Position numbers and translations under genes: made by a program
From: Eledone cirrhosa
Lineage: Eukaryota
Direction: 5' to 3'
NCBI GenBank assembly: GCA_964016885.1
Contig: OZ024740.1
Coordinates: 423,398,001 to 423,462,000, forward strand
Length of the DNA: 64,000 bases
Notes under the pieces: generated by a model
Database searches by the model: none
Told to the model about the DNA's origin: nothing
Seen by the model: the letters and a program-made list of their open reading frames with translations, nothing else
Part shown: in pieces, positions 1 to 22,780 of the stretch
Layout: each line of letters begins with the position of its first letter
How positions within the stretch are numbered: position 1 is the stretch's first letter

Positions 1-2550
1 CATGCCCAGCCCTCCACGAAGAGGGTGCTGGCAGCAGATGGACCGCCTCACCAACGGGACCCGTCCCCTCCACAAAAATTTGAAAAGGAGCCGTTCCAAA
101 TTGGCGAGGCGTGGACGGGGGCAAGGCACGACGGCCAGGCGGTAGTAGATGACGGACGCGATGTACGCGTTCGCCACCTCCGCCCGCCCTTTCAGTGATA
201 GCTTTCTCTCAGCCCATTTCTGGGTGAGGTTGGCTATCCTGCTCGTCACCTCGTCCCAATTCTTATCCACCTGGAGGTCTGGTCCGAACCAAACCCCGAG
301 CAACTTTACCGGTCCGTCTGTCCAGCGCCCAACGACGCTGTTGGACGGCATGGACTTGCCTCTCCAGGTGCCGAGCTGCAAGCCCACCGACTTTTCCGGG
401 TTAAGTTTTGCTCCCGTCAACCTTTCATATTCCTCCAAATGGGTGCGGATCACCTCGATTTCCGAGGTGTCCGACACCATCACGGTGATGTCGTCCGCAT
501 AAGCGGACGCAGCCTTTCTGCGTCCCGGTTCGAGCGGGATGCCCTGCAACAACTCCAGCTTCCGCAGTAGAGGCTCAAGAGTCAATACGTACAGAAGTGA
601 GGAGAGAGGGCACCCTTGACGGACCGATCGAGAGATCTGAAACGGTTCCGAGAGGTGGCCATTAACTTTGACCACCGAGCGGATGCCGCTGTACATTGCA
701 GCGATCCAGCTTCTGAAGACGGGGCCGAAGCCAGCCGCCTCGAGGACAGCCTCCAAGTACCGATGGTCGACCCTATCGAATGCTTTCGATTGATCTAAAT
801 TGATCAGAGCCCCACCGAAGCCAGGTTTGCACCCAACCCTCTCTATGATGTATCGCATGAGGTGGAGGTTGTCGTGTATGGACCTGGTCGGGATTGCGCA
901 AGTTTGCGCCTCCCCAACCAAATCTTTGACGACAAGCGCCAACCTTTTCGCTAACACCTTGGCCAAAATCTTAAACTCTGTGTTGAGCAGGGTTATGGGC
1001 CTGAAATTATCTAGTGTGTCCCTCTTGTTCTCGTCTTTCCTTATCAGCGTCACTACGCCACGGCTCACAGAACTGGGAATGCTCCCGTTCTGCTGCCAGT
1101 TGCAGTAGAGCGCTTCGAGGAGATCGGAGAACAAGTCTGGCATATTTACGTAAAGCTCGTAGGGCAGACCATCCAAACCGGGTGACTTGCGACTCGAGCA
1201 GCCGACAAGGGCGTCCTGAATTTCGGCTGATGTTATCGGCTCTTCGCAGCGCTCAGCGTCGGCCGTCGAGAGGCGTGGCAAGCCGTCGAGGTAGGGACTG
1301 AAGTCCGCCGCCGTCTCCGACTCACCCATCCTCCCGAACAATCGAGCAAAGTGCTGGCGAAAGGCCTCACACATCCGCTTGGAATCGCTCAGTTCGTGTC
1401 CATCTCGATCCGTCAAAGACCGAATTGTGGTTTTATTTCCACGCTGCGTCTCTGCAAAGCGAGCCCATCGGGCAGCTTTGGTTCCCTCGTTCCTCAGAGC
1501 ACTCGCCTTAGCTCTGACAATGCAACCTTCGTGTTTCGCATTGAAGAAATGGTCTAGTGCCATTCTCGCCGCTAGCACGTCTGTTGCAATGCCACTACAA
1601 ATAGCCTCGTCTAACTTAGCTATCAGCCCCTCCTCCTTTCTATTTTTCTCTATTGCTACTTCTTTGCTAAATCCTATCGAGGTTGCTCTAATCTCTCTTT
1701 TGAGTGCCCCCCACCACCTGTTGTTGACAACCCCCCCTGTCAACTTTTGCTTAACTAAGTTGTTGACCCGGTCCCTGTAAGCTTTACGTGCCGGAAACGA
1801 CATGTTTAGCTTCCAGTAGCTAGGTCCTAACCTACGTGTCTTATCTAGGTCGACCATACAGATCACAAGCTTGTGATCTGAATAGGCAACCGTTTTAAAA
1901 TGTGGACATCCTACACTATTTCTATCTCTTTTCCTAATGAAAATCCTATCTATGTACGATCTAGATGACCCTATGCGATTGGTCCAGGTCCATACTGGCG
2001 CATTAGGGAAATCTAGTCGGTACCTGTCAGACAGTTGAAACTGGCTGATCAGGTACTTGAGGCTTTTGCACCCCCCGCTCCTATCAGATACTCCCACACA
2101 ATCCCAGCGTGCTTCTAAGATGCCATTCCAATCCCCTATTAACAGTAAAGGGCGAGACGTAAGCAGAAAGTTTTCCAGGCGCCTAAAGAAGTCCGGCCGA
2201 CCGGCCCCAGTAGGGGCGTAGACGGCCACCAGTCTAAAGGCACCACCTTCGCTATTGCTCACGTCCAGGACCACCAACTTTCCGTCAGGATCCCGGAAGA
2301 TTGACCTTACCTCGAGATCCAGACATTTCCTAAACAGCACAGCCACTCCACCTCCCATTCCCGGCCGACTAACAGATGCAAAGATCTGATAATCGTCGAA
2401 AATCGGCGCCAGTGCGCGTGTGTCGGAAATTCTGGTCTCGCTGATGGCAATTACATCCATTCCTAGTGACCTGAGGTCGTTGAGCAAGTGACCTTGCTTC
2501 CAGGGCGACCCCAGGCCACGAACATTTAAACTTCCTACTCTTATGGCCAT
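1..2550 (-). CDS. Tx1-like ORF2 (APE endonuclease + reverse transcriptase), partial, copy 1
   Basis: Same sequence as 5841-8390 apart from two missense changes. ATG at 2550; frame runs off the window. Confidence 0.93.
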   Translation of the reverse strand, partial: MAIRVGSLNVRGLGSPWKQGHLLNDLRSLGMDVIAISETRISDTRALAPIFDDYQIFASVSRPGMGGGVAVLFRKCLDLEVRSIFRDPDGKLVVLDVSNSEGGAFRLVAVYAPTGAGRPDFFRRLENFLLTSRPLLLIGDWNGILEARWDCVGVSDRSGGCKSLKYLISQFQLSDRYRLDFPNAPVWTWTNRIGSSRSYIDRIFIRKRDRNSVGCPHFKTVAYSDHKLVICMVDLDKTRRLGPSYWKLNMSFPARKAYRDRVNNLVKQKLTGGVVNNRWWGALKREIRATSIGFSKEVAIEKNRKEEGLIAKLDEAICSGIATDVLAARMALDHFFNAKHEGCIVRAKASALRNEGTKAARWARFAETQRGNKTTIRSLTDRDGHELSDSKRMCEAFRQHFARLFGRMGESETAADFSPYLDGLPRLSTADAERCEEPITSAEIQDALVGCSSRKSPGLDGLPYELYVNMPDLFSDLLEALYCNWQQNGSIPSSVSRGVVTLIRKDENKRDTLDNFRPITLLNTEFKILAKVLAKRLALVVKDLVGEAQTCAIPTRSIHDNLHLMRYIIERVGCKPGFGGALINLDQSKAFDRVDHRYLEAVLEAAGFGPVFRSWIAAMYSGIRSVVKVNGHLSEPFQISRSVRQGCPLSSLLYVLTLEPLLRKLELLQGIPLEPGRRKAASAYADDITVMVSDTSEIEVIRTHLEEYERLTGAKLNPEKSVGLQLGTWRGKSMPSNSVVGRWTDGPVKLLGVWFGPDLQVDKNWDEVTSRIANLTQKWAERKLSLKGRAEVANAYIASVIYYRLAVVPCPRPRLANLERLLFKFLWRGRVPLVRRSICCQHPLRGGLGM

Positions 2551-2579
2551 GCTGGCAGGATGAATGGGAGAGGAAAGGT

Positions 2580-4490
2580 TTACTTACCTTCCGGGGTCTT
2601 GTGAAGGTCGGGTGGTTCGACCTCCATGGTTTGTGGGGTTTCTTTTGGGAACCCCTTTAATAGTCTTGACGTGGGTTTTACGTTCGGGGTTCCCACATCC
2701 CGAGGAAAGCTCTTTCGAATTTCTTTGTATGAAGCGAGCGACATTCGCATCAGAAGCAAATTATCTGGTACGCGAAATGTGCTCGCTTCAAATGTTTCCC
2801 CGTCTTTTTCGATGTTTGTGCTTCGTGCTACATGGGCCATCAATTCCTTGTTGGCCCTTCTGGCAAGCACGAAGTTTTTAATGTTTTGTTGCTCGGGTTT
2901 TATTTGTTCGTGTGATTGTGGTGGTGATAGCTTTGTTAGTGTTGTTTCTATTGTGTCTGCGTTTGTTGTGGGTGGGGTGTCTGTAGTTTCTGATGTTTGT
3001 GCGTCTATTTGTTCTTGTATCTGTTTAGCTTGTTTGCGTTTGGGGGATTTTGGTGGTTGTGTTGGTGATGCTGTGGGGAAAATGTTTGTGTGGGTGGTGT
3101 GTGTATTTTCTTTTGTGGGGGTGTTTGTGCTTTGTGGATTTCTTTTTTTTTTGTGTTTTGTTTTTTGTATTTTGGGGGACTTTGGTTTTCCCTCATCTTC
3201 ACTGCTGGAGGATGAGGGGTCTGTGGCTGTGAGCGTGTTTGTGTCTGAGTGAGTGTTTATGTTCTTGTTCGTGTGTGTATTTTGGGGGGGAGGGGGAATG
3301 GGAGAGCTTTCCTCGTTTCCCCCCTGGGTGTGCAATTTTGGTGGTTCCATTGTTGACGGTGTTGCTGGTGGTCCTTGTCCCGGCGTCGCCAGCAGTGGAA
3401 TCTTTCGACCCCTTGCGCTTTTCAGCAGTTGAGGGCAGAAGGCTCGCAAGTGTGTCGTTTCCCCACAAAGGAAACAATGCGGCCTTTTGCCCTCAGTCAT
3501 TATATGCAACACCCTCCCGTTTTGGAGGCGGATGTGGTCCGGGATTGTTTTTACGTTTTCGGGTCTGATTTGGAGCAGTATCTCCAGATCAACCCCGGAC
3601 CAGTCGTCCCTGGCAGTTCTCGTTGCCTCTACCGGGACTGTATCCGTTCCTTCCACGATTACGCAACCCAGGAGCCACCACATATCAAGTCCTGGTGGAA
3701 TCCTGGGAATGCGCACACGTGCTATTCGTTTTCCCATGTGGGAGGGGTACATTATGACCTTGCTGGTTTTGCAAGGGGTCATTGAATGCTTCACAGCGAG
3801 GGCTTCAGACTTGAACAGCACCGAAACGGTGCCGTATTGCCTGCCCCTCTCTATGAAGTCTGTGTCCTCTCTGATGTATTTCAGTGCGGCTTCTATGTCA
3901 GCTTGGGCGATTATCGCTGCCCTCTTTGTCTCTACTGAGATGCATCTGAAATGCACCGTTCTTTTTTCCACTGCCTCAATGGCTTCTGCCGGGACAGTTA
4001 AGTTTGCCCAGGTCTGCTCTTGATTTATGATTTTCCAGGCCTGGGCCAACTTTTCCTCTCTGTTGGTTAAGTCGATGCTGTAGCATGGTCTCCTTTTAGC
4101 CGCTGCCACAGCAGCGAAAGTGTTCTTGTTGGTGTTGTCACTGTTGTTGTTCTTGTTGGTGTTGCTGCTGCTATTGCTGTTGTTGTTCTCCCCTGTGTCG
4201 TGGTTACCTTCTGTGCTGTTGGCCTTGTTGGTGCTGCTGCTGTCGCTACTATTACTCTCTGTGCTGTTCGTTTTGTTGGTGCTCTCGCTATTACCACCTT
4301 CTGCGCTGTTCGGCTTGTTGGTGTTGGTGTTGTCGTTGTTACCACCTTCCGCGCCGCTCGGCCCGTTGGTGCTGGCACTGTCGCTGCTCACATTCGTGCT
4401 GGTGGCGCTCCTCGCCTCACCTCTCCTCTCAACGCTCAAGTCGCCGTTGCACGACAGCAGACCCGCCTCTAGGGGGCGTGGCTCCGCCAT
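2580..4490 (-). CDS. Tx1-like ORF1 nucleic-acid-binding protein (636 aa from first ATG), copy 1
   Basis: ATG in AAAAACATGG context at 4490 (the track's TTG start adds 23 aa). CX2CX4HX4C knuckle CFLCGETTHLRAFC, FAAVAAA motif, N/S/T-rich N-terminus, P/K/T-rich C-terminal half. Confidence 0.9.
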   Translation of the reverse strand: MAEPRPLEAGLLSCNGDLSVERRGEARSATSTNVSSDSASTNGPSGAEGGNNDNTNTNKPNSAEGGNSESTNKTNSTESNSSDSSSTNKANSTEGNHDTGENNNSNSSSNTNKNNNSDNTNKNTFAAVAAAKRRPCYSIDLTNREEKLAQAWKIINQEQTWANLTVPAEAIEAVEKRTVHFRCISVETKRAAIIAQADIEAALKYIREDTDFIERGRQYGTVSVLFKSEALAVKHSMTPCKTSKVIMYPSHMGKRIARVRIPRIPPGLDMWWLLGCVIVEGTDTVPVEATRTARDDWSGVDLEILLQIRPENVKTIPDHIRLQNGRVLHIMTEGKRPHCFLCGETTHLRAFCPQLLKSARGRKIPLLATPGQGPPATPSTMEPPKLHTQGGNEESSPIPPPPQNTHTNKNINTHSDTNTLTATDPSSSSSEDEGKPKSPKIQKTKHKKKRNPQSTNTPTKENTHTTHTNIFPTASPTQPPKSPKRKQAKQIQEQIDAQTSETTDTPPTTNADTIETTLTKLSPPQSHEQIKPEQQNIKNFVLARRANKELMAHVARSTNIEKDGETFEASTFRVPDNLLLMRMSLASYKEIRKSFPRDVGTPNVKPTSRLLKGFPKETPQTMEVEPPDLHKTPEGK

Positions 4491-4536
4491 GTTTTTTTTG
4501 AGAAAAAAATTATGATTTTTTTCAAAATAAAGTTCA

Positions 4537-4564
4537 AATATTTGGGCCAAAAGGCCCAAATATT
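4537..4564 (-). promoter_or_regulatory. Perfect 12-bp hairpin in Tx1 5'UTR (also 10377-10404, 16217-16244, 22008-22035)
   Basis: Sense strand AATATTTGGGCC-TTTT-GGCCCAAATATT, ~46 nt upstream of the ORF1 ATG. Function inferred only. Confidence 0.6.
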
Positions 4565-4701
4565 ATGAGTTATTCCTTCACAGGATACAAATTAATGTCT
4601 TATAATGCTTCAGCGGTACAAAAAATAAACAATTCTCTACAATTAATCCTCAAAAAATTGCTTACTCACGGAGCTTCAAAAAACGTACATCCACTTTCGT
4701 C

Positions 4702-4716
4702 AATAATAATAATAAT
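4702..4716. repeat. (AAT)5 junction / putative 15-bp target-site duplication (also 10542-10556, 16382-16396, 22173-22187)
   Basis: Exactly five AAT units after every element 5' end, including the outer flank. Confidence 0.9.
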
Positions 4717-4723
4717 GATTTCA

Positions 4724-4729
4724 TTTATT
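4724..4729 (-). terminator. AATAAA polyadenylation signal at Tx1 3' end (also 10564-10569, 16404-16409)
   Basis: Sense strand ...GGCCCTTGTGGCCAATAAATGAAATC(ATT)5; no poly(A) tail present. Confidence 0.7.
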
Positions 4730-4970
4730 GGCCACAAGGGCCGACATATAGGGGACAACACAATAGACAGGGACAGTGGGGGTTTACATAGAGATCGAGT
4801 AAGTATAAATAACAAAAAAAACAAAATAACAATAAAAATACAACAATGAAAGTTCCCCAATAAGAGGGATCACCACCCAGGGTTGACTCAAGCACCCCAC
4901 CAGTCCTGAGCCACCCGACGCTCCTAGGGCACCCGGGAAGGGCACCCCTCTCCTTCTCGAATTCACCAGC

Positions 4971-7900
4971 CTACAGGCGCATGATCAGAGTAGGCCCACT
5001 CACGCGGGCCATTCTCGCCACATTCACCCACCTTTCAGTAAATGTACTGGGGGGCAGCACTTCTCTCTCCACCCTCACCTTCCTTTCCAAGTGAAACTTG
5101 AAGAAGTTGATGAGGGATTGGCCGAAGAGAAAAGTGTCTGTCTTCAGTCCTTTCAACCTGGTCCACCATGCAACCTCTTTCGCTACTGCCACCAGGCAGA
5201 GGAAAATTGCCTGCCCTTCCTGACCAAAAGAAGGCGGCGGGTCAATCTTCACTATGGACTCGGACGATAGCCGGATCCGTTCTACACGCGACAATAGCTG
5301 TTCGACATAACCCCACAAGTCAGCAATGCACGGACACTGGACGAGTGCGTGCAGAACGGTTTCGTCGCTCTGCGCGCATCTCGGGCAGGTTCGTCTGACA
5401 GCACTTCCGTGCCTGTAGAGTTTATCCCGAACCGGCAGCGCCCCCCGGTAGCACTGCCAAGCGAGGGATTTCTGGAAGTTATCCATCGTCCCCGGCTCGA
5501 AAGTCCTCCGGAACATACTGGTCAGTTCTACTTCGTTGACGCCCAGAGCCTCTCCTAGTACGTCATCGCACTTGCCCTCCACTAATCCTCTATAGAAATC
5601 TTGAGTGGAAGTTCCACTGACCGCATTGCCCACCTTGCAGAGTGCAGTGAGCGCCTGGCAACATTCCAGATGCCAGTCGCCCAGTCTCGGTCTCTTCTTG
5701 ACCCAGGACTGCAGCTCAGTCAAAGAGATGAGCTGCGGAAAGGCCCGTCTAACAAACGGCGACCACACCTGTTCACCGTTTAGGCAAAATATCTGGAGAT
5801 GTCGCAGCCTCAGCGCATGTCTGCGCATCATTAGCCACGGCATGCCCAGCCCTCCACGAAGAGGGTGCTGGCAGCAGATGGACCGCCTCACCAACGGGAC
5901 CCGTCCCCTCCACAAAAATTTGAAAAGGAGCCGTTCCAAATTGGCGAGGCGTGGACGGGGGCAAGGCACGACGGTCAGGCGGTAGTAGATGACGGACGCG
6001 ATGTACGCGTTCGCCACCTCCGCCCGCCCTTTCAGTGATAGCTTTCTCTCAGCCCATTTCTGGGTGAGGTTGGCTATCCTGCTCGTCACCTCGTCCCAAT
6101 TCTTATCCACCTGGAGGTCTGGTCCGAACCAAACCCCGAGCAACTTTACCGGTCCGTCTGTCCAGCGCCCAACGACGCTGTTGGACGGCATGGACTTGCC
6201 TCTCCAGGTGCCGAGCTGCAAGCCCACCGACTTTTCCGGGTTAAGTTTTGCTCCCGTCAACCTTTCATATTCCTCCAAATGGGTGCGGATCACCTCGATT
6301 TCCGAGGTGTCCGACACCATCACGGTGATGTCGTCCGCATAAGCGGACGCAGCCTTTCTGCGTCCCGGTTCGAGCGGGATGCCCTGCAACAACTCCAGCT
6401 TCCGCAGTAGAGGCTCAAGAGTCAATACGTACAGAAGTGAGGAGAGAGGGCACCCTTGACGGACCGATCGAGAGATCTGAAACGGTTCCGAGAGGTGGCC
6501 ATTAACTTTGACCACCGAGCGGATGCCGCTGTACATTGCAGCGATCCAGCTTCTGAAGACGGGGCCGAAGCCAGCCGCCTCGAGGACAGCCTCCAAGTAC
6601 CGATGGTCGACCCTATCGAATGCTTTCGATTGATCTAAATTGATCAGAGCCCCACCGAAGCCAGGTTTGCACCCAACCCTCTCTATGATGTATCGCATGA
6701 GGTGGAGGTTGTCGTGTATGGACCTGGTCGGGATTGCGCAAGTTTGCGCCTCCCCAACCAAATCTTTGACGACAAGCGCCAACCTTTTCGCTAACACCTT
6801 GGCCAAAATCTTAAACTCTGTGTTGAGCAGGGTTATGGGCCTGAAATTATCTAGTGTGTCCCTCTTGTTCTCGTCTTTCCTTATCAGCGTCACTACGCCA
6901 CGGCTCACAGAACTGGGAATGCTCCCGTTCTGCTGCCAGTTGCAGTAGAGCGCTTCGAGGAGATCGGAGAACAAGTCTGGCATATTTACGTAAAGCTCGT
7001 AGGGCAGACCATCCAAACCGGGTGACTTGCGACTCGAGCAGCCGACAAGGGCGTCCTGAATTTCGGCTGATGTTATCGGCTCTTCGCAGCGCTCAGCGTC
7101 GGCCGTCGAGAGGCGTGGCAAGCCGTCGAGGTAGGGACTGAAGTCCGCCGCCGTCTCCGACTCACCCATCCTCCCGAACAATCGAGCAAAGTGCTGGCGA
7201 AAGGCCTCACACATCCGCTTGGAATCGCTCAGTTCGTGTCCATCTCGATCCGTCAAAGACCGAATTGTGGTTTTATTTCCACGCTGCGTCTCTGCAAAGC
7301 GAGCCCATCGGGCAGCTTTGGTTCCCTCGTTCCTCAGAGCACGCGCCTTAGCTCTGACAATGCAACCTTCGTGTTTCGCATTGAAGAAATGGTCTAGTGC
7401 CATTCTCGCCGCTAGCACGTCTGTTGCAATGCCACTACAAATAGCCTCGTCTAACTTAGCTATCAGCCCCTCCTCCTTTCTATTTTTCTCTATTGCTACT
7501 TCTTTGCTAAATCCTATCGAGGTTGCTCTAATCTCTCTTTTGAGTGCCCCCCACCACCTGTTGTTGACAACCCCCCCTGTCAACTTTTGCTTAACTAAGT
7601 TGTTGACCCGGTCCCTGTAAGCTTTACGTGCCGGAAACGACATGTTTAGCTTCCAGTAGCTAGGTCCTAACCTACGTGTCTTATCTAGGTCGACCATACA
7701 GATCACAAGCTTGTGATCTGAATAGGCAACCGTTTTAAAATGTGGACATCCTACACTATTTCTATCTCTTTTCCTAATGAAAATCCTATCTATGTACGAT
7801 CTAGATGACCCTATGCGATTGGTCCAGGTCCATACTGGCGCATTAGGGAAATCTAGTCGGTACCTGTCAGACAGTTGAAACTGGCTGATCAGGTACTTGA

Positions 7901-8390
7901 GGCTTTTGCACCCCCCGCTCCTATCAGATACTCCCACACAATCCCAGCGTGCTTCTAAGATGCCATTCCAATCCCCTATTAACAGTAAAGGGCGAGACGT
8001 AAGCAGAAAGTTTTCCAGGCGCCTAAAGAAGTCCGGCCGACCGGCCCCAGTAGGGGCGTAGACGGCCACCAGTCTAAAGGCACCACCTTCGCTATTGCTC
8101 ACGTCCAGGACCACCAACTTTCCGTCAGGATCCCGGAAGATTGACCTTACCTCGAGATCCAGACATTTCCTAAACAGCACAGCCACTCCACCTCCCATTC
8201 CCGGCCGACTAACAGATGCAAAGATCTGATAATCGTCGAAAATCGGCGCCAGTGCGCGTGTGTCGGAAATTCTGGTCTCGCTGATGGCAATTACATCCAT
8301 TCCTAGTGACCTGAGGTCGTTGAGCAAGTGACCTTGCTTCCAGGGCGACCCCAGGCCACGAACATTTAAACTTCCTACTCTTATGGCCAT
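4971..8390 (-). CDS. Tx1-like ORF2, 1139 aa: APE endonuclease, reverse transcriptase, C-terminal Zn finger (copy 2)
   Basis: APE motifs SLNVRGL, ISET, GDWN, YIDRIF, SDH. RT motifs SPGLDG, FRPITLLN, KAFDRV, QGCPLS, YADD. C-terminal CPRC..ETVLHALVQC. Confidence 0.97.
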   Translation of the reverse strand: MAIRVGSLNVRGLGSPWKQGHLLNDLRSLGMDVIAISETRISDTRALAPIFDDYQIFASVSRPGMGGGVAVLFRKCLDLEVRSIFRDPDGKLVVLDVSNSEGGAFRLVAVYAPTGAGRPDFFRRLENFLLTSRPLLLIGDWNGILEARWDCVGVSDRSGGCKSLKYLISQFQLSDRYRLDFPNAPVWTWTNRIGSSRSYIDRIFIRKRDRNSVGCPHFKTVAYSDHKLVICMVDLDKTRRLGPSYWKLNMSFPARKAYRDRVNNLVKQKLTGGVVNNRWWGALKREIRATSIGFSKEVAIEKNRKEEGLIAKLDEAICSGIATDVLAARMALDHFFNAKHEGCIVRAKARALRNEGTKAARWARFAETQRGNKTTIRSLTDRDGHELSDSKRMCEAFRQHFARLFGRMGESETAADFSPYLDGLPRLSTADAERCEEPITSAEIQDALVGCSSRKSPGLDGLPYELYVNMPDLFSDLLEALYCNWQQNGSIPSSVSRGVVTLIRKDENKRDTLDNFRPITLLNTEFKILAKVLAKRLALVVKDLVGEAQTCAIPTRSIHDNLHLMRYIIERVGCKPGFGGALINLDQSKAFDRVDHRYLEAVLEAAGFGPVFRSWIAAMYSGIRSVVKVNGHLSEPFQISRSVRQGCPLSSLLYVLTLEPLLRKLELLQGIPLEPGRRKAASAYADDITVMVSDTSEIEVIRTHLEEYERLTGAKLNPEKSVGLQLGTWRGKSMPSNSVVGRWTDGPVKLLGVWFGPDLQVDKNWDEVTSRIANLTQKWAERKLSLKGRAEVANAYIASVIYYRLTVVPCPRPRLANLERLLFKFLWRGRVPLVRRSICCQHPLRGGLGMPWLMMRRHALRLRHLQIFCLNGEQVWSPFVRRAFPQLISLTELQSWVKKRPRLGDWHLECCQALTALCKVGNAVSGTSTQDFYRGLVEGKCDDVLGEALGVNEVELTSMFRRTFEPGTMDNFQKSLAWQCYRGALPVRDKLYRHGSAVRRTCPRCAQSDETVLHALVQCPCIADLWGYVEQLLSRVERIRLSSESIVKIDPPPSFGQEGQAIFLCLVAVAKEVAWWTRLKGLKTDTFLFGQSLINFFKFHLERKVRVEREVLPPSTFTERWVNVARMARVSGPTLIMRL

Positions 8391-8419
8391 GCTGGCAGGA
8401 TGAATGGGAGAGGAAAGGT

Positions 8420-10330: not shown

Positions 10331-10810
10331 GTTTTTTTTGAGAAAAAAATTATGATTTTTTTCAAAATAAAGTTCAAATATTTGGGCCAAAAGGCCCAAA
10401 TATTATGAGTTATTCCTTCACAGGATACAAATTAATGTCTTATAATGCTTCAGCGGTACAAAAAATAAACAATTCTCTACAATTAATCCTCAAAAAATTG
10501 CTTACTCACGGAGCTTCAAAAAACGTACATCCACTTTCGTCAATAATAATAATAATGATTTCATTTATTGGCCACAAGGGCCGACATATAGGGGACAACA
10601 CAATAGACAGGGACAGTGGGGGTTTACATAGAGATCGAGTAAGTATAAATAACAAAAAAAACAAAATAACAATAAAAATACAACAATGAAAGTTCCCCAA
10701 TAAGAGGGATCACCACCCAGGGTTGACTCAAGCACCCCACCAGTCCTGAGCCACCCGACGCTCCTAGGGCACCCGGGAAGGGCACCCCTCTCCTTCTCGA
10801 ATTCACCAGC

Positions 10811-13800: not shown

Positions 13801-14230
13801 TGCCATTCCAATCCCCTATTAACAGTAAAGGGCGAGACGTAAGCAGAAAGTTTTCCAGGCGCCTAAAGAAGTCCGGCCGACCGGCCCCAGTAGGGGCGTA
13901 GACGGCCACCAGTCTAAAGGCACCACCTTCGCTATTGCTCACGTCCAGGACCACCAACTTTCCGTCAGGATCCCGGAAGATTGACCTTACCTCGAGATCC
14001 AGACATTTCCTAAACAGCACAGCCACTCCACCTCCCATTCCCGGCCGACTAACAGATGCAAAGATCTGATAATCGTCGAAAATCGGCGCCAGTGCGCGTG
14101 TGTCGGAAATTCTGGTCTCGCTGATGGCAATTACATCCATTCCTAGTGACCTGAGGTCGTTGAGCAAGTGACCTTGCTTCCAGGGCGACCCCAGGCCACG
14201 AACATTTAAACTTCCTACTCTTATGGCCAT
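10811..14230 (-). CDS. Tx1-like ORF2, copy 3
   Basis: 1139 aa, translation identical to copy 2. Confidence 0.97.
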   Translation of the reverse strand: MAIRVGSLNVRGLGSPWKQGHLLNDLRSLGMDVIAISETRISDTRALAPIFDDYQIFASVSRPGMGGGVAVLFRKCLDLEVRSIFRDPDGKLVVLDVSNSEGGAFRLVAVYAPTGAGRPDFFRRLENFLLTSRPLLLIGDWNGILEARWDCVGVSDRSGGCKSLKYLISQFQLSDRYRLDFPNAPVWTWTNRIGSSRSYIDRIFIRKRDRNSVGCPHFKTVAYSDHKLVICMVDLDKTRRLGPSYWKLNMSFPARKAYRDRVNNLVKQKLTGGVVNNRWWGALKREIRATSIGFSKEVAIEKNRKEEGLIAKLDEAICSGIATDVLAARMALDHFFNAKHEGCIVRAKARALRNEGTKAARWARFAETQRGNKTTIRSLTDRDGHELSDSKRMCEAFRQHFARLFGRMGESETAADFSPYLDGLPRLSTADAERCEEPITSAEIQDALVGCSSRKSPGLDGLPYELYVNMPDLFSDLLEALYCNWQQNGSIPSSVSRGVVTLIRKDENKRDTLDNFRPITLLNTEFKILAKVLAKRLALVVKDLVGEAQTCAIPTRSIHDNLHLMRYIIERVGCKPGFGGALINLDQSKAFDRVDHRYLEAVLEAAGFGPVFRSWIAAMYSGIRSVVKVNGHLSEPFQISRSVRQGCPLSSLLYVLTLEPLLRKLELLQGIPLEPGRRKAASAYADDITVMVSDTSEIEVIRTHLEEYERLTGAKLNPEKSVGLQLGTWRGKSMPSNSVVGRWTDGPVKLLGVWFGPDLQVDKNWDEVTSRIANLTQKWAERKLSLKGRAEVANAYIASVIYYRLTVVPCPRPRLANLERLLFKFLWRGRVPLVRRSICCQHPLRGGLGMPWLMMRRHALRLRHLQIFCLNGEQVWSPFVRRAFPQLISLTELQSWVKKRPRLGDWHLECCQALTALCKVGNAVSGTSTQDFYRGLVEGKCDDVLGEALGVNEVELTSMFRRTFEPGTMDNFQKSLAWQCYRGALPVRDKLYRHGSAVRRTCPRCAQSDETVLHALVQCPCIADLWGYVEQLLSRVERIRLSSESIVKIDPPPSFGQEGQAIFLCLVAVAKEVAWWTRLKGLKTDTFLFGQSLINFFKFHLERKVRVEREVLPPSTFTERWVNVARMARVSGPTLIMRL

Positions 14231-14259
14231 GCTGGCAGGATGAATGGGAGAGGAAAGGT

Positions 14260-16170
14260 TTACTTACCTTCCGGGGTCTTGTGAAGGTCGGGTGGTTCGA
14301 CCTCCATGGTTTGTGGGGTTTCTTTTGGGAACCCCTTTAATAGTCTTGACGTGGGTTTTACGTTCGGGGTTCCCACATCCCGAGGAAAGCTCTTTCGAAT
14401 TTCTTTGTATGAAGCGAGCGACATTCGCATCAGAAGCAAATTATCTGGTACGCGAAATGTGCTCGCTTCAAATGTTTCCCCGTCTTTTTCGATGTTTGTG
14501 CTTCGTGCTACATGGGCCATCAATTCCTTGTTGGCCCTTCTGGCAAGCACGAAGTTTTTAATGTTTTGTTGCTCGGGTTTTATTTGTTCGTGTGATTGTG
14601 GTGGTGATAGCTTTGTTAGTGTTGTTTCTATTGTGTCTGCGTTTGTTGTGGGTGGGGTGTCTGTAGTTTCTGATGTTTGTGTGTCTATTTGTTCTTGTGT
14701 CTGTTTAGCTTGTTTGCGTTTGGGGGATTTTGGTGGTTGTGTTGGTGATGCTGTGGGGAAAATGTTTGTGTGGGTGGTGTGTGTATTTTCTTTTGTGGGG
14801 GTGTTTGTGCTTTGTGGATTTCTTTTTTTTTTGTGTTTTGTTTTTTGTATTTTGGGGGACTTTGGTTTTCCCTCATCTTCACTGCTGGAGGATGAGGGGT
14901 CTGTGGCTGTGAGCGTGTTTGTGTCTGAGTGAGTGTTTATGTTCTTGTTCGTGTGTGTATTTTGGGGGGGAGGGGGAATGGGAGAGCTTTCCTCGTTTCC
15001 CCCCTGGGTGTGCAATTTTGGTGGTTCCATTGTTGACGGTGTTGCTGGTGGTCCTTGTCCCGGCGTCGCCAGCAGTGGAATCTTTCGACCCCTTGCGCTT
15101 TTCAGCAGTTGAGGGCAGAAGGCTCGCAAGTGTGTCGTTTCCCCACAAAGGAAACAATGCGGCCTTTTGCCCTCAGTCATTATATGCAACACCCTCCCGT
15201 TTTGGAGGCGGATGTGGTCCGGGATTGTTTTTACGTTTTCGGGTCTGATTTGGAGCAGTATCTCCAGATCAACCCCGGACCAGTCGTCCCTGGCAGTTCT
15301 CGTTGCCTCTACCGGGACTGTATCCGTTCCTTCCACGATTACGCAACCCAGGAGCCACCACATATCAAGTCCTGGTGGAATCCTGGGAATGCGCACACGT
15401 GCTATTCGTTTTCCCATGTGGGAGGGGTACATTATGACCTTGCTGGTTTTGCAAGGGGTCATTGAATGCTTCACAGCGAGGGCTTCAGACTTGAACAGCA
15501 CCGAAACGGTGCCGTATTGCCTGCCCCTCTCTATGAAGTCTGTGTCCTCTCTGATGTATTTCAGTGCGGCTTCTATGTCAGCTTGGGCGATTATCGCTGC
15601 CCTCTTTGTCTCTACTGAGATGCATCTGAAATGCACCGTTCTTTTTTCCACTGCCTCAATGGCTTCTGCCGGGACAGTTAAGTTTGCCCAGGTCTGCTCT
15701 TGATTTATGATTTTCCAGGCCTGGGCCAACTTTTCCTCTCTGTTGGTTAAGTCGATGCTGTAGCATGGTCTCCTTTTAGCCGCTGCCACAGCAGCGAAAG
15801 TGTTCTTGTTGGTGTTGTCACTGTTGTTGTTCTTGTTGGTGTTGCTGCTGCTATTGCTGTTGTTGTTCTCCCCTGTGTCGTGGTTACCTTCTGTGCTGTT
15901 GGCCTTGTTGGTGCTGCTGCTGTCGCTACTATTACTCTCTGTGCTGTTCGTTTTGTTGGTGCTCTCGCTATTACCACCTTCTGCGCTGTTCGGCTTGTTG
16001 GTGTTGGTGTTGTCGTTGTTACCACCTTCCGCGCCGCTCGGCCCGTTGGTGCTGGCACTGTCGCTGCTCACATTCGTGCTGGTGGCGCTCCTCGCCTCAC
16101 CTCTCCTCTCAACGCTCAAGTCGCCGTTGCACGACAGCAGACCCGCCTCTAGGGGGCGTGGCTCCGCCAT
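14260..16170 (-). CDS. Tx1-like ORF1, copy 3
   Basis: Translation identical to copy 2. Confidence 0.9.
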   Translation of the reverse strand: MAEPRPLEAGLLSCNGDLSVERRGEARSATSTNVSSDSASTNGPSGAEGGNNDNTNTNKPNSAEGGNSESTNKTNSTESNSSDSSSTNKANSTEGNHDTGENNNSNSSSNTNKNNNSDNTNKNTFAAVAAAKRRPCYSIDLTNREEKLAQAWKIINQEQTWANLTVPAEAIEAVEKRTVHFRCISVETKRAAIIAQADIEAALKYIREDTDFIERGRQYGTVSVLFKSEALAVKHSMTPCKTSKVIMYPSHMGKRIARVRIPRIPPGLDMWWLLGCVIVEGTDTVPVEATRTARDDWSGVDLEILLQIRPENVKTIPDHIRLQNGRVLHIMTEGKRPHCFLCGETTHLRAFCPQLLKSARGRKIPLLATPGQGPPATPSTMEPPKLHTQGGNEESSPIPPPPQNTHTNKNINTHSDTNTLTATDPSSSSSEDEGKPKSPKIQKTKHKKKRNPQSTNTPTKENTHTTHTNIFPTASPTQPPKSPKRKQAKQTQEQIDTQTSETTDTPPTTNADTIETTLTKLSPPQSHEQIKPEQQNIKNFVLARRANKELMAHVARSTNIEKDGETFEASTFRVPDNLLLMRMSLASYKEIRKSFPRDVGTPNVKPTSRLLKGFPKETPQTMEVEPPDLHKTPEGK

Positions 16171-16649
16171 GTTTTTTTTGAGAAAAAAATTATGATTTTT
16201 TTCAAAATAAAGTTCAAATATTTGGGCCAAAAGGCCCAAATATTATGAGTTATTCCTTCACAGGATACAAATTAATGTCTTATAATGCTTCAGCGGTACA
16301 AAAAATAAACAATTCTCTACAATTAATCCTCAAAAAATTGCTTACTCACGGAGCTTCAAAAAACGTACATCCACTTTCGTCAATAATAATAATAATGATT
16401 TCATTTATTGGCCACAAGGGCCGACATATAGGGGACAACACAATAGACAGGGACAGTGGGGGTTTACATAGAGATCGAGTAAGTATAAATAACAAAAAAA
16501 CAAAATAACAATAAAAATACAACAATGAAAGTTCCACAATAAGAGGGATCACCACCCAGGGTTGACTCAAGCACCCCACCAGTCCTGAGCCACCCGACGC
16601 TCCTAGGGCACCCGGGAAGGGCACCCCTCTCCTTCTCGAATTCACCAGC

Positions 16650-19600
16650 CTACAGGCGCATGATCAGAGTAGGCCCACTCACGCGGGCCATTCTCGCCAC
16701 ATTCACCCACCTTTCAGTAAATGTACTGGGGGGCAGCACTTCTCTCTCCACCCTCACCTTCCTTTCCAAGTGAAACTTGAAGAAGTTGATGAGGGATTGG
16801 CCGAAGAGAAAAGTGTCTGTCTTCAGTCCTTTCAACCTGGTCCACCATGCAACCTCTTTCGCTACTGCCACCAGGCAGAGGAAAATTGCCTGCCCTTCCT
16901 GACCAAAAGAAGGCGGCGGGTCAATCTTCACTATGGACTCGGACGATAGCCGGATCCGTTCTACACGCGACAATAGCTGTTCGACATAACCCCACAAGTC
17001 AGCAATGCACGGACACTGGACGAGTGCGTGCAGAACGGTTTCGTCGCTCTGCGCGCATCTCGGGCAGGTTCGTCTGACAGCACTTCCGTGCCTGTAGAGT
17101 TTATCCCGAACCGGCAGCGCCCCCCGGTAGCACTGCCAAGCGAGGGATTTCTGGAAGTTATCCATCGTCCCCGGCTCGAAAGTCCTCCGGAACATACTGG
17201 TCAGTTCTACTTCGTTGACGCCCAGAGCCTCTCCTAGTACGTCATCGCACTTGCCCTCCACTAATCCTCTATAGAAATCTTGAGTGGAAGTTCCACTGAC
17301 CGCATTGCCCACCTTGCAGAGTGCAGTGAGCGCCTGGCAACATTCCAGATGCCAGTCGCCCAGTCTCGGTCTCTTCTTGACCCAGGACTGCAGCTCAGTC
17401 AAAGAGATGAGCTGCGGAAAGGCCCGTCTAACAAACGGCGACCACACCTGTTCACCGTTTAGGCAAAATATCTGGAGATGTCGCAGCCTCAGCGCATGTC
17501 TGCGCATCATTAGCCACGGCATGCCCAGCCCTCCACGAAGAGGGTGCTGGCAGCAGATGGACCGCCTCACCAACGGGACCCGTCCCCTCCACAAAAATTT
17601 GAAAAGGAGCCGTTCCAAATTGGCGAGGCGTGGACGGGGGCAAGGCACGACGGTCAGGCGGTAGTAGATGACGGACGCGATGTACGCGTTCGCCACCTCC
17701 GCCCGCCCTTTCAGTGATAGCTTTCTCTCAGCCCATTTCTGGGTGAGGTTGGCTATCCTGCTCGTCACCTCGTCCCAATTCTTATCCACCTGGAGGTCTG
17801 GTCCGAACCAAACCCCGAGCAACTTTACCGGTCCGTCTGTCCAGCGCCCAACGACGCTGTTGGACGGCATGGACTTGCCTCTCCAGGTGCCGAGCTGCAA
17901 GCCCACCGACTTTTCCGGGTTAAGTTTTGCTCCCGTCAACCTTTCATATTCCTCCAAATGGGTGCGGATCACCCCGATTTCCGAGGTGTCCGACACCATC
18001 ACGGTGATGTCGTCCGCATAAGCGGACGCAGCCTTTCTACGTCCCGGTTCGAGCGGGATGCCCTGCAACAACTCCAGCTTCCGCAGTAGAGGCTCAAGAG
18101 TCAATACGTACAGAAGTGAGGAGAGAGGGCACCCTTGACGGACCGATCGAGAGATCTGAAACGGTTCCGAGAGGTGGCCATTAACTTTGACCACCGAGCG
18201 GATGCCGCTGTACATTGCAGCGATCCAGCTTCTGAAGACGGGGCCGAAGCCAGCCGCCTCGAGGACAGCCTCCAAGTACCGATGGTCGACCCTATCGAAT
18301 GCTTTCGATTGATCTAAATTGATCAGAGCCCCACCGAAGCCAGGTTTGCACCCAACCCTCTCTATGATGTATCGCATGAGGTGGAGGTTGTCGTGTATGG
18401 ACCTGGTCGGGATTGCGCAAGTTTGCGCCTCCCCAACCAAATCTTTGACGACAAGCGCCAACCTTTTCGCTAACACCTTGGCCAAAATCTTAAACTCTGT
18501 GTTGAGCAGGGTTATGGGCCTGAAATTATCTAGTGTGTCCCTCTTGTTCTCGTCTTTCCTTATCAGCGTCACTACGCCACGGCTCACAGAACTGGGAATG
18601 CTCCCGTTCTGCTGCCAGTTGCAGTAGAGCGCTTCGAGGAGATCGGAGAACAAGTCTGGCATATTTACGTAAAGCTCGTAGGGCAGACCATCCAAACCGG
18701 GTGACTTGCGACTCGAGCAGCCGACAAGGGCGTCCTGAATTTCGGCTGATGTTATCGGCTCTTCGCAGCGCTCAGCGTCGGCCGTCGAGAGGCGTGGCAA
18801 GCCGTCGAGGTAGGGACTGAAGTCCGCCGCCGTCTCCGACTCACCCATCCTCCCGAACAATCGAGCAAAGTGCTGGCGAAAGGCCTCACACATCCGCTTG
18901 GAATCGCTCAGTTCGTGTCCATCTCGATCCGTCAAAGACCGAATTGTGGTTTTATTTCCACGCTGCGTCTCTGCAAAGCGAGCCCATCGGGCAGCTTTGG
19001 TTCCCTCGTTCCTCAGAGCACGCGCCTTAGCTCTGACAATGCAACCTTCGTGTTTCGCATTGAAGAAATGGTCTAGTGCCATTCTCGCCGCTAGCACGTC
19101 TGTTGCAATGCCACTACAAATAGCCTCGTCTAACTTAGCTATCAGCCCCTCCTCCTTTCTATTTTTCTCTATTGCTACTTCTTTGCTAAATCCTATCGAG
19201 GTTGCTCTAATCTCTCTTTTGAGTGCCCCCCACCACCTGTTGTTGACAACCCCCCCTGTCAACTTTTGCTTAACTAAGTTGTTGACCCGGTCCCTGTAAG
19301 CTTTACGTGCCGGAAACGACATGTTTAGCTTCCAGTAGCTAGGTCCTAACCTACGTGTCTTATCTAGGTCGACCATACAGATCACAAGCTTGTGATCTGA
19401 ATAGGCAACCGTTTTAAAATGTGGACATCCTACACTATTTCTATCTCTTTTCCTAATGAAAATCCTATCTATGTACGATCTAGATGACCCTATGCGATTG
19501 GTCCAGGTCCATACTGGCGCATTAGGGAAATCTAGTCGGTACCTGTCAGACAGTTGAAACTGGCTGATCAGGTACTTGAGGCTTTTGCACCCCCCGCTCC

Positions 19601-20069
19601 TATCAGATACTCCCACACAATCCCAGCGTGCTTCTAAGATGCCATTCCAATCCCCTATTAACAGTAAAGGGCGAGACGTAAGCAGAAAGTTTTCCAGGCG
19701 CCTAAAGAAGTCCGGCCGACCGGCCCCAGTAGGGGCGTAGACGGCCACCAGTCTAAAGGCACCACCTTCGCTATTGCTCACGTCCAGGACCACCAACTTT
19801 CCGTCAGGATCCCGGAAGATTGACCTTACCTCGAGATCCAGACATTTCCTAAACAGCACAGCCACTCCACCTCCCATTCCCGGCCGACTAACAGATGCAA
19901 AGATCTGATAATCGTCGAAAATCGGCGCCAGTGCGCGTGTGTCGGAAATTCTGGTCTCGCTGATGGCAATTACATCCATTCCTAGTGACCTGAGGTCGTT
20001 GAGCAAGTGACCTTGCTTCCAGGGCGACCCCAGGCCACGAACATTTAAACTTCCTACTCTTATGGCCAT
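16650..20069 (-). CDS. Tx1-like ORF2, copy 4
   Basis: 1139 aa; one E->G change (SEIGV) just after YADD. Confidence 0.97.
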   Translation of the reverse strand: MAIRVGSLNVRGLGSPWKQGHLLNDLRSLGMDVIAISETRISDTRALAPIFDDYQIFASVSRPGMGGGVAVLFRKCLDLEVRSIFRDPDGKLVVLDVSNSEGGAFRLVAVYAPTGAGRPDFFRRLENFLLTSRPLLLIGDWNGILEARWDCVGVSDRSGGCKSLKYLISQFQLSDRYRLDFPNAPVWTWTNRIGSSRSYIDRIFIRKRDRNSVGCPHFKTVAYSDHKLVICMVDLDKTRRLGPSYWKLNMSFPARKAYRDRVNNLVKQKLTGGVVNNRWWGALKREIRATSIGFSKEVAIEKNRKEEGLIAKLDEAICSGIATDVLAARMALDHFFNAKHEGCIVRAKARALRNEGTKAARWARFAETQRGNKTTIRSLTDRDGHELSDSKRMCEAFRQHFARLFGRMGESETAADFSPYLDGLPRLSTADAERCEEPITSAEIQDALVGCSSRKSPGLDGLPYELYVNMPDLFSDLLEALYCNWQQNGSIPSSVSRGVVTLIRKDENKRDTLDNFRPITLLNTEFKILAKVLAKRLALVVKDLVGEAQTCAIPTRSIHDNLHLMRYIIERVGCKPGFGGALINLDQSKAFDRVDHRYLEAVLEAAGFGPVFRSWIAAMYSGIRSVVKVNGHLSEPFQISRSVRQGCPLSSLLYVLTLEPLLRKLELLQGIPLEPGRRKAASAYADDITVMVSDTSEIGVIRTHLEEYERLTGAKLNPEKSVGLQLGTWRGKSMPSNSVVGRWTDGPVKLLGVWFGPDLQVDKNWDEVTSRIANLTQKWAERKLSLKGRAEVANAYIASVIYYRLTVVPCPRPRLANLERLLFKFLWRGRVPLVRRSICCQHPLRGGLGMPWLMMRRHALRLRHLQIFCLNGEQVWSPFVRRAFPQLISLTELQSWVKKRPRLGDWHLECCQALTALCKVGNAVSGTSTQDFYRGLVEGKCDDVLGEALGVNEVELTSMFRRTFEPGTMDNFQKSLAWQCYRGALPVRDKLYRHGSAVRRTCPRCAQSDETVLHALVQCPCIADLWGYVEQLLSRVERIRLSSESIVKIDPPPSFGQEGQAIFLCLVAVAKEVAWWTRLKGLKTDTFLFGQSLINFFKFHLERKVRVEREVLPPSTFTERWVNVARMARVSGPTLIMRL

Positions 20070-20098
20070 GCTGGCAGGATGAATGGGAGAGGAAAGGT

Positions 20099-21961
20099 TT
20101 ACTTACCTTCCGGGGTCTTGTGAAGGTCGGGTGGTTCGACCTCCATGGTTTGTGGGGTTTCTTTTGGGAACCCCTTTAATAGTCTTGACGTGGGTTTTAC
20201 GTTCGGGGTTCCCACATCCCGAGGAAAGCTCTTTCGAATTTCTTTGTATGAAGCGAGCGACATTCGCATCAGAAGCAAATTATCTGGTACGCGAAATGTG
20301 CTCGCTTCAAATGTTTCCCCGTCTTTTTCGATGTTTGTGCTTCGTGCTACATGGGCCATCAATTCCTTGTTGGCCCTTCTGGCAAGCACGAAGTTTTTAA
20401 TGTTTTGTTGCTCGGGTTTTATTTGTTCGTGTGATTGTGGTGGTGATAGCTTTGTTAGTGTTGTTTCTATTGTGTCTGCGTTTGTTGTGGGTGGGGTGTC
20501 TGTAGTTTCTGATGTTTGTGTGTCTATTTGTTCTTGTGTCTGTTTAGCTTGTTTGCGTTTGGGGGATTTTGGTGGTTGTGTTGGTGATGCTGTGGGGAAA
20601 ATGTTTGTGTGGGTGGTGTGTGTATTTTCTTTTGTGGGGGTGTTTGTGCTTTGTGGATTTCTTTTTTTTTTGTGTTTTGTTTTTTGTATTTTGGGGGACT
20701 TTGGTTTTCCCTCATCTTCACTGCTGGAGGATGAGGGGTATGTGGCTGTGAGCGTGTTTGTGTCTGAGTGAGTGTTTATGTTCTTGTTCGTGTGTGTATT
20801 TTTGGGGGGAGGGGGAATGGGAGAGCTTTCCTCGTTTCCCCCCTGGGTGTGCAATTTTGGTGGTTCCATTGTTGACGGTGTTGCTGGTGGTCCTTGTCCC
20901 GGCGTCGCCAGCAGTGGAATCTTTCGACCCCTTGCGCTTTTCGGCAGTTGAGGGCAGAAGGCTCGCAAGTGTGTCGTTTCCCCACAAAGGAAACAATGCG
21001 GCCTTTTGCCCTCAGTCATTATATGCAACACCCTCCCGTTTTGGAGGCGGATGTGGTCCGGGATTGCTTTCACGTTTTCGGGTCTGATTTGGAGCAGTAT
21101 CTCCAGATCAACCCCGGACCAGTCGTCCCTGGCAGTTCTCGTTGCCTCTACCGGGACTGTATCCGTTCCTTCCACGATTACGCAACCCAGGAGCCACCAC
21201 ATATCAAGTCCTGGTGGAATCCTGGGAATGCGCACACGTGCTATTCGTTTTCCCATGTGGGAGGGGTACATTATGACCTTGCTGGTTTTGCAAGGGGTCA
21301 TTGAATGCTTCACAGCGAGGGCTTCAGACTTGAACAGCACCGAAACGGTGCCGTATTGCCTGCCCCTCTCTATGAAGTCTGTGTCCTCTCTGATGTATTT
21401 CAGTGCGGCTTCTATGTCAGCTTGGGCGATTATCGCTGCCCTCTTTGTCTCTACTGAGATGCATCTGAAATGCACCGTTCTTTTTTCCACTGCCTCAATG
21501 GCTTCTGCCGGGACAGTTAAGTTTGCCCAGGTCTGCTCTTGATTTATGATTTTCCAGGCCTGGGCCAACTTTTCCTCTCTGTTGGTTAAGTCGATGCTGT
21601 AGCATGGTCTCCTTTTAGCCGCTGCCACAGCAGCGAAAGTGTTCTTGTTGGTGTTGTCACTGTTGTTGTTCTTGTTGGTGTTGCTGCTGCTATTGCTGTT
21701 GTTGTTCTCCCCTGTGTCGTGGTTACCTTCTGTGCTGTTGGCCTTGTTGGTGCTCTCGCTATTACCACCTTCTGCGCTGTTCGGCTTGTTGGTGTTGGTG
21801 TTGTCGTTGTTACCACCTTCCGCGCCGCTCGGCCCGTTGGTGCTGGCACTGTCGCTGCTCACATTCGTGCTGGTGGCGCTCCTCGCCTCACCTCTCCTCT
21901 CAACGCTCAAGTCGCCGTTGCACGACAGCAGACCCGCCTCTAGGGGGCGTGGCTCCGCCAT
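20099..21961 (-). CDS. Tx1-like ORF1, copy 4 (620 aa)
   Basis: 16-aa in-frame deletion in the N/S/T repeat; T->A, L->P, Q->K and D->Y changes. Confidence 0.9.
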   Translation of the reverse strand: MAEPRPLEAGLLSCNGDLSVERRGEARSATSTNVSSDSASTNGPSGAEGGNNDNTNTNKPNSAEGGNSESTNKANSTEGNHDTGENNNSNSSSNTNKNNNSDNTNKNTFAAVAAAKRRPCYSIDLTNREEKLAQAWKIINQEQTWANLTVPAEAIEAVEKRTVHFRCISVETKRAAIIAQADIEAALKYIREDTDFIERGRQYGTVSVLFKSEALAVKHSMTPCKTSKVIMYPSHMGKRIARVRIPRIPPGLDMWWLLGCVIVEGTDTVPVEATRTARDDWSGVDLEILLQIRPENVKAIPDHIRLQNGRVLHIMTEGKRPHCFLCGETTHLRAFCPQLPKSARGRKIPLLATPGQGPPATPSTMEPPKLHTQGGNEESSPIPPPPKNTHTNKNINTHSDTNTLTATYPSSSSSEDEGKPKSPKIQKTKHKKKRNPQSTNTPTKENTHTTHTNIFPTASPTQPPKSPKRKQAKQTQEQIDTQTSETTDTPPTTNADTIETTLTKLSPPQSHEQIKPEQQNIKNFVLARRANKELMAHVARSTNIEKDGETFEASTFRVPDNLLLMRMSLASYKEIRKSFPRDVGTPNVKPTSRLLKGFPKETPQTMEVEPPDLHKTPEGK

Positions 21962-22187
21962 GTTTTTTTTGAGAAAAAAATTATGATTTTTTTCAAAATA
22001 AAGTTCAAATATTTGGGCCAAAAGGCCCAAATATTATGAGTTATTCCTTCACAGGATACAAATTAATGTCTTATAATGCTTCAGCGGTACAAAAAATAAA
22101 CAATTCTCTACAATTAATCCTCAAAAAATTGCTTACTCACGGAGCTTCAAAAAACGTACATCCACTTTCGTCAATAATAATAATAAT

Positions 22188-22780
<593 letters not shown>

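Follow-up and report, generated by a model that had tools for sequence, protein, structure and literature searches.

A full-length L1/Tx1-type LINE stacked head to tail in (ATT)n tracts of the octopod Eledone cirrhosa, probably through repeated insertion and unequal exchange

In the genome of Eledone cirrhosa we find a head-to-tail array of ten full-length 5.8-kb copies of an L1/Tx1-type LINE (G000:C1:423361889-423420172). The young family to which it belongs is confined to (ATT)n tracts; its ends are fixed, and there is no poly(A). We think it probable that the array was seeded by insertion of an element into the ATT duplication beside an older copy, and that it was enlarged by unequal exchange between neighbours. 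The window, i.e., the whole stretch of DNA that was analysed (64,000 nucleotides; G000:C1:423398001-423462000), contains four minus-strand copies of the unit as seen by self-comparison. The adjoining stretches were fetched as well, and they extend the array by six further copies past the window edge beyond copy 4. We number the copies 1-10 starting from the element's 5' side and give positions within the window.

Copy 1, the 5'-most of the ten (16397-22172, minus strand, as are all features of the element and its junctions below), is full length with both ORFs open and has a 48-bp in-frame deletion in ORF1. Copy 2 (10557-16381) and copy 3 (4717-10541) are both full length and do not differ at any of 5825 positions, the only identical pair among the ten. 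Copy 4 is represented by its 5' part (1-4701) and runs off the window edge. The copies are joined by (ATT)5 (16382-16396, 10542-10556 and 4702-4716), and the outer 5' flank is also (ATT)5 (22173-22187), with GTT ahead of it in the element sense. Beside the array lies a degenerate trinucleotide (TAG/TGG) microsatellite of the host (22188-22780; strand not assigned). The copies in the window start with GACG and end with GAAATC, 7 nt past AATAAA, and have no poly(A).

A preliminary description of this DNA reported at least four copies of about 5.8 kb in the same orientation with one 5' start and no poly(A), and the whole array extends this to ten copies. The open ORFs reported there are confirmed for copies 1-4, which are intact, but not for the six copies outside the window (copies 5-10), each of which has ORF1, ORF2 or both broken. 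Likewise, the exact (AAT)5 described at the junctions and outer flank is present at all nine internal junctions and at the 5' outer flank, but on the far (3') side the outer flank reads GTT(ATT)3, after which a short stretch of the element's own 3' end lies in inverted orientation. GTT is thus found in both outer flanks of the array and in none of its internal junctions. The tandem array as a whole is not an assembly artefact, as the ten copies differ from one another by 0-42 substitutions. Because only copies 2 and 3 are identical, an assembly error could change the count at most from ten to nine. One junction was also compared with contigs from four sequencing runs; there is no bridging piece among those listed, a result that is uninformative on expression, copy number and other species.

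The element has two ORFs. ORF1 (636 amino acids; 8420-10330, also 14260-16170 and 2580-4490) is 620 amino acids long in the outermost copy (20099-21961) owing to the 48-bp deletion. It has no match in Pfam; a motif scan finds a CX2CX4HX4C (CCHC) knuckle at residue 339, and residues 130-365 resemble zf-CCHC and ZCCHC3 RNA-binding clusters (atlas scores 0.90-0.93), which we take as a lead only. ORF2 (1139 amino acids; 4971-8390, also 10811-14230, 16650-20069 and, in part, 1-2550) contains an N-terminal APE domain (residues 1-235; Pfam: PF03372), a reverse transcriptase (RT) domain (PF00078) with YADD at residue 684, and a C-terminal zf-RVT domain (PF13966). Its best full-length structural-sequence matches are LINE-1 endonucleases. 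The 5' UTR (10331-10541) is structured: folded with the 15-nt junction, it has a z-score of -4.1 against 200 shuffles, and its main hairpin is kept in the older subfamily. The 3' UTR (10557-10810), which ends in AATAAA-TGAAATC without poly(A), folds no better than shuffles. An Rfam search over one whole copy and its flanks gives no ribozyme at the gathering level; the three matches all score far below it, and a known ribozyme at the 5' end is not supported.

Genome-wide motif counts put the young family at about 330 copies (325 exact 5' ends, 336 exact young 3' ends). A shorter 3' motif has 2,048 matches in the genome, including an older subfamily that is approximately 89% identical and whose 5' ends are likewise preceded by ATT. 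Compared with the 325 exact 5' ends, 308 have at least (ATT)5 directly upstream. We extracted 131 copies for flank scoring. ATT in register stands ahead of 125 of 125 5' ends; intact 3' ends are followed by ATT in 127 of 129 and by GTT in 2 of 129, and poly(A) is found at none of these 129. The (ATT)n target proposed in the preliminary description is therefore supported, and no full-length young copy in this set lies at a non-ATT site. We reject the possibility that (ATT)n is only a 3' tail encoded by the element: ATT also surrounds the 5' ends of full-length copies, and in two cases the 3' end is followed immediately by GTT of the target.

Are the copies outside arrays also complete? We scored the first 100 young 3' ends listed, all on contigs C1 and C2. 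For 89 of them a listed 5' end pairs by coordinate; the remaining 11 were fetched and proved to be five full-length and six truncated copies, so that the 5' end is kept in 94 of 100 young copies examined. Completeness characterizes the family as a whole and extends to its solo copies. Read-through from an upstream copy, which had been suggested as the source of an RNA beginning with (AUU)5, is therefore not needed, although the idea of an RNA that starts with AUU repeats finds indirect support at the 5' junctions considered below. In four of the six young copies that are truncated (L148, L154, L157 and L158), the 5' junction shows neither ATT nor a duplication, a result that annealing of such an RNA to the target does not directly predict.

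Elements of the L1 clade proper have a 3' poly(A) tail and are frequently truncated at the 5' end. In the present family none of the 129 3' flanks begins with A5, and the truncated copies are the 6 of 100 just described. The element has the organization of the L1/Tx1 type, namely an ORF2 with APE, RT and a C-terminal cysteine-rich domain and a separate ORF1 with an RNA-binding region and CCHC knuckle. For Tx1-type target preference, PMC4494074 gives a threshold of over 20% of flanks, which the flank counts above exceed at both ends. Membership in Tx1 fits this anatomy; the RT tree (32 rows) carried no named Tx1 reference. In that tree the element, a sister family and an Argonauta hians protein form one group (100/100), which sits inside a set with Branchiostoma and Paramuricea proteins. 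The Argonauta hians protein is the closest named homologue (69% across the RT region), and no named Tx1 relative was found in homologue searches, a cluster look-up or the atlas.

How is the 5' junction closed? We examined a short-target set: 30 loci with a 3' flank of two or three ATT followed by AGT repeats, plus the young truncated copy L150 at a similar target. Nine of the 30 loci were excluded because they were rearranged or nested or offered no junction that could be scored. At these targets, where the ATT tract ends within three repeats of the nick, 6 of 8 truncated copies retain non-ATT target bases at the 5' junction, compared with 1 of 14 full-length copies (Fisher p 0.002), a contrast that mixes subfamilies and includes a single scorable truncated copy of the young one. 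Among full-length copies, such bases are kept in 0 of 7 young and 1 of 7 older copies; in the older subfamily alone the comparison is 5 of 7 truncated versus 1 of 7 full-length (p 0.10). The duplication, where kept, is 13-19 bp (8-9 bp in L278), and the fixed 15-bp duplication assumed in the preliminary description is not supported, as array junctions also vary from 5 to 8 repeats. Because truncated copies at short-ATT targets mostly keep the duplication and full-length copies almost never do, it is likely, judging from these DNA junctions, that the element RNA starts with AUU repeats derived from the upstream ATT tract and that these anneal to the target.

The same target and the same arrays might also arise with no repeats on the RNA, if the precise ATT 5' junction came from the endonuclease placing its second cut within the ATT tract whenever the RNA is complete. 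A similar idea has been raised for R1 (PMC2718515). Both junctions are located at T-A steps, and the full-length copies L151, L186 and L210 have exact duplications of 15-18 bp with no added repeat, which fits such a cut and counts against annealing. However, L183, L204 and L281 have an extra T or ATT beyond the anchored duplication, and the scarcity of truncated copies is left unexplained. We regard a second cut of this kind as unlikely and prefer annealing of AUU repeats on the RNA.

We aligned 122 full-length copies (48 in arrays, 74 solo) of the approximately 330 and built a tree. Arrays W, C10a, C4a, C1b, C1d, C2a and C4d each contain mixed lineages. For example, six C10 copies occupy four places in the tree, and copies 7-10 of the present array are 23-42 substitutions from the rest. 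The distance from the column majority for copies 1-10 is 10, 8, 8, 13, 12, 15, 27, 28, 31 and 29; it also rises toward the 3' end in C10a, C4a and C1d, and C1b is reversed, with its oldest copy at the 5' end. This mixture points to repeated insertion, and re-insertion into a regenerated target, as proposed in the preliminary description, is thereby supported.

Repeated insertion is not supported as the only cause. Over all arrays we count 37 variants that are private to some copies of a single array; 31 of them occur in adjacent copies. The present array has 21 private variants, 17 of them in adjacent copies; the other four join non-adjacent copies (7 with 10, 1 with 6). Here "private" means absent from the other copies among the 122 aligned of about 330, and since variants within one tract are not independent, the significance of adjacency is overstated. 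Two pair-private substitutions are common to only 3 of 2,701 solo pairs. The tracts in common are out of register with the elements. The 3' part of copy 5 agrees with copy 4 (positions 4567 and 4907), whereas its 5' part agrees with copy 6 (202 and 1414), and the 3' part of copy 4 with the 5' part of copy 5 resembles the 3' part of copy 5 with the 5' part of copy 6. Copy 8 has a 5' part in common with copy 9 and a 3' part in common with copy 7. The pattern in copy 5 appears to be that of a duplicated single unit whose limits do not coincide with the element ends. Taken together, private variants of neighbours in tracts that cross element boundaries point to unequal exchange, and the exchange detected in the present array would, from these tracts, fall inside the elements. 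Crossing-over between the outer duplications, the alternative offered in the preliminary description, is rejected as the origin of the array: because the outer GTT is absent from all internal junctions, the first dimer did not form in this way. The junctions of the present array are uniformly (ATT)5 (9 of 9, versus 7 of 26 in the other arrays), which is consistent with a single junction having been copied.

One could still suppose that every unit is a separate retrotransposition into a regenerated ATT site, and that neighbours are alike through local transcripts re-inserting or through RT template switching along read-through RNA. The mixed lineages are in keeping with this, as is the frequency of stacking. 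On contigs C1 and C2, 22 of 94 listed 5' ends fall in 6 multi-copy loci, of 78 loci in all, whereas random target use predicts at most 0.8, given that the genome has no fewer than 65,958 tracts of five or more ATT repeats (only tracts followed by a base other than A were counted). However, unit-length RNA cannot yield the boundary-crossing tracts of copies 4-5 versus 5-6, neighbouring copies have frame-breaking indels in common, and a sister-family array has two 6.9-kb units with an identical foreign insert of 0.8 kb. We consider separate insertion of every unit quite improbable, and favour insertion together with unequal exchange.

In addition to the array in the window, a junction query gives 40 scored matches across many contigs, and exact counts give 18 junctions with five repeats (nine in the present array) and 25 with six, so that a minimum of 43 head-to-tail junctions of these two lengths are spread over eleven contigs. 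We fetched twelve further arrays of 2-6 copies each, whose 26 junctions have five repeats (7 junctions), six (16), seven (1) or eight (2). The target duplication is preserved as (ATT)5-8 at all 35 internal junctions of the 13 arrays. The (AAT)5 site described as invariant is so within the present array, but (ATT)5 is not invariant across the family.

Stacking is also seen in the sister family, whose ORF2 is 75% identical and for which at least 5,025 3' ends with (ATT)4 behind them were counted. Two of three sister clusters fetched show direct head-to-tail (ATT)n stacks, and the third joins the sister family to a further relative. Young copies lie directly behind the sister family's 3' end at 17 of 90 loci and directly ahead of a relative's 5' end at 8 of 90. 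Stacking is a property of a lineage and not of one locus. The identity of copies 2 and 3, the C1c dimer, whose copies have no substitution between them, and nine junctions of equal length could be explained if a single insertion had undergone ordinary tandem duplication on the spot, or if the assembly were at fault. Such an origin is very improbable here, however, and is rejected as the sole cause for the family, given junctions on eleven contigs, array members that are up to 42 substitutions apart and fall in the tree beside different solo copies, and a sister family that stacks likewise.

We propose the following course of events. The APE domain would nick the AAT strand at a T-A step and prime reverse transcription there, and a second cut would fall about 15-19 bp away. 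The RNA would begin within the upstream ATT tract, and a complete cDNA would then end in AAT repeats, which would pair in register with the target and close the 5' junction precisely. Truncated cDNAs would be without the AAT end, which would explain why roughly 94% of copies are full length. The pattern of loci shows that insertion leaves a clean ATT tract on both sides, and that reuse of these tracts by the young and sister families gives mixed-lineage stacks with the oldest copy mostly at the 3' end. With two 5.8-kb copies side by side, misaligned exchange inside the elements would duplicate and mix units, as the shared variants suggest, and would also copy the (ATT)5 junction. More tentatively, these elements may represent an octopod L1/Tx1-type lineage that carries its target on both RNA ends, the (AUU)n acting as short terminal repeats. 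If only complete cDNAs close the 5' junction, insertion would be precise and almost always full length, would rebuild two clean targets, and could chain several families into dispersed retrotransposon satellites at hundreds of loci.

The nearest parallel is R1 in Drosophila rDNA, an APE-type, site-specific LINE whose arrayed copies are separated by the target duplication. R1 arrays are described as forming when a new copy inserts into the duplication that lies 5' of an R1 already in place (Stage and Eickbush; PMC2718515), and double insertion followed by unequal exchange has been argued to be a general source of satellites derived from transposable elements (McGurk and Barbash; bioRxiv 10.1101/158386). 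The present arrays share two features of such satellites, the duplication kept at junctions and members from independent insertions. R1 differs in belonging to the R1 clade, in its 28S rDNA target and in being confined to the rDNA locus, in contrast to an L1/Tx1-type element with a dispersed microsatellite target, arrays on many chromosomes and several families mixing. At the 5' end, full-length R1 RNA is stated to carry upstream target sequence, and all truncated R1 copies to keep duplications (PMC2718515); for R2, many RNAs are stated to carry upstream target sequence that anneals (Eickbush et al.; PMC3774820). Precise full-length junctions are thus attributed to target sequence on the RNA in melanogaster-type R1 and R2, as we suggest here from the DNA. 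In those accounts the RNA comes from rRNA co-transcripts, for R2 through an HDV-like ribozyme, whereas the present element has no Rfam ribozyme match.

The targeting of a microsatellite also has precedents. Kibi and Koshi are Tx1 families reportedly described by Kojima and Fujiwara in 2004. Dong elements belong to the R4 clade and have a restriction-like endonuclease after the RT and a single ORF, unlike the present element with its two ORFs and N-terminal APE domain. Dong shares the same microsatellite class as target, its sites being given as TAA repeats, and one Dong element comes from a snail (PMC3812793, which lists Dong with APE elements). Tx1 families targeting (TC)n (Kibi), (TTC)n (Koshi) and, in crocodilians, (TTCC)n/(TTTC)n are like the present family in type and in kind of target, but their repeats and hosts are different, and arrays or an excess of full-length copies are not reported for them in the account given by PMC4494074. 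In Octopus vulgaris, Table 1 of PMC13282606 gives 421 recent L1-Tx1 insertions over 2,288,644 bp, counts that come without a description of target, junctions or arrays. By our own division this is about 5.4 kb per insertion, i.e., mostly full length as in the present family, and these insertions possibly belong to the same lineage. Our literature search turned up neither an ATT-specific Tx1 nor an array of Tx1 elements, but the family may already be present in Repbase, Dfam, subscription papers or supplements, which lay outside that search.

Each mechanistic step is already known from R1 and R2 in rDNA, and this precedent limits the surprise. The present arrays work like those of R1, with an apparent R1/R2-type annealing at the 5' end; they differ in the type of element (L1/Tx1), in the dispersed microsatellite target and in the unusually large share of full-length copies. 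In our search, none of the steps was described for a Tx1-type LINE at ATT microsatellites. The element is intact and of the APE type, and its precise 5.8-kb insertion into an abundant non-coding repeat makes it a candidate RNA-templated insertion tool for study. LINEs are usually truncated at the 5' end, and the cause is still debated. In the present family approximately 94% of copies are full length, and truncated ones at comparable targets can serve as controls, so that one may test whether target repeats borne by the RNA decide 5' closure. The arrays also show the transition from double insertion to satellite, as it has been proposed, while it is under way, in copies that can be dated and at many independent loci that belong neither to rDNA nor to telomeres.

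In addition to the young LINE of the array, we identify a sister family that is likewise stacked with (ATT)n between its copies. The ORF2 of this family is open (1139 amino acids) and 75% identical to that of the array LINE, and the family has at least 5,025 3' ends. Examples include copies in the genomic pieces L098 (minus strand, from position 3357) and L298-L304. At least two further related LINE families have their own 5' ends preceded by ATT.

Two neighbouring 6.9-kb units (L300-L301, G000:C1:55.44-55.45 Mb) each contain a 0.8-kb repeat flanked by ATT tracts, which is 100% identical between the units and has copies of 87-98% identity at other loci. The repeat looks like a LINE 3' fragment on the opposite strand; possibly, it is a Dong-like element using the same ATT tracts.

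At the 3' outer flank of the array (downstream of G000:C1:423361889, L034), an inverted copy of the LINE's own 3' end, approximately 35 bp long, directly follows GTT(ATT)3. The two copies of another array, the C1c dimer (L174-L175), show no substitutions between them; ORF1 is broken in both, and their private variants are confined to the 5' 2.55 kb. The dimer is either a recently duplicated recombinant element or a false duplication.

An old fragment of the ORF2 3' region from the array LINE's lineage (approximately 71% identity) lies on the minus strand of the window at 41086-41553. Other retroelement fragments occupy the plus strand at 30165-32117, 44301-44822, 53348-54562 and 63470-64000: one RT fragment, two ORFs and one RT-like ORF crossing the window edge. 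The two ORFs appear Penelope-like; a Pfam search with one of them gave no match. The window also contains tandem repeats of period 61 (33449-34364, 15 copies), 55 (48954-49562, 11 copies) and 31 (57804-58356, 18 copies).

An abundant SINE-like repeat of approximately 200 bp terminates in a tail similar to the LINE 3' end, followed by ATT; the local alignment score was matched in 1 of 2000 shuffles. This repeat occurs in the window at 36397-36419, 36488-36511, 36708-36730 and 56429-56451 (plus strand) and at 23577-23599, 27894-27916, 36758-36780 and 49609-49631 (minus strand). The ATT tails of this repeat serve as LINE targets too (7 of 90 loci), and it may be mobilised by the LINE lineage of the array.
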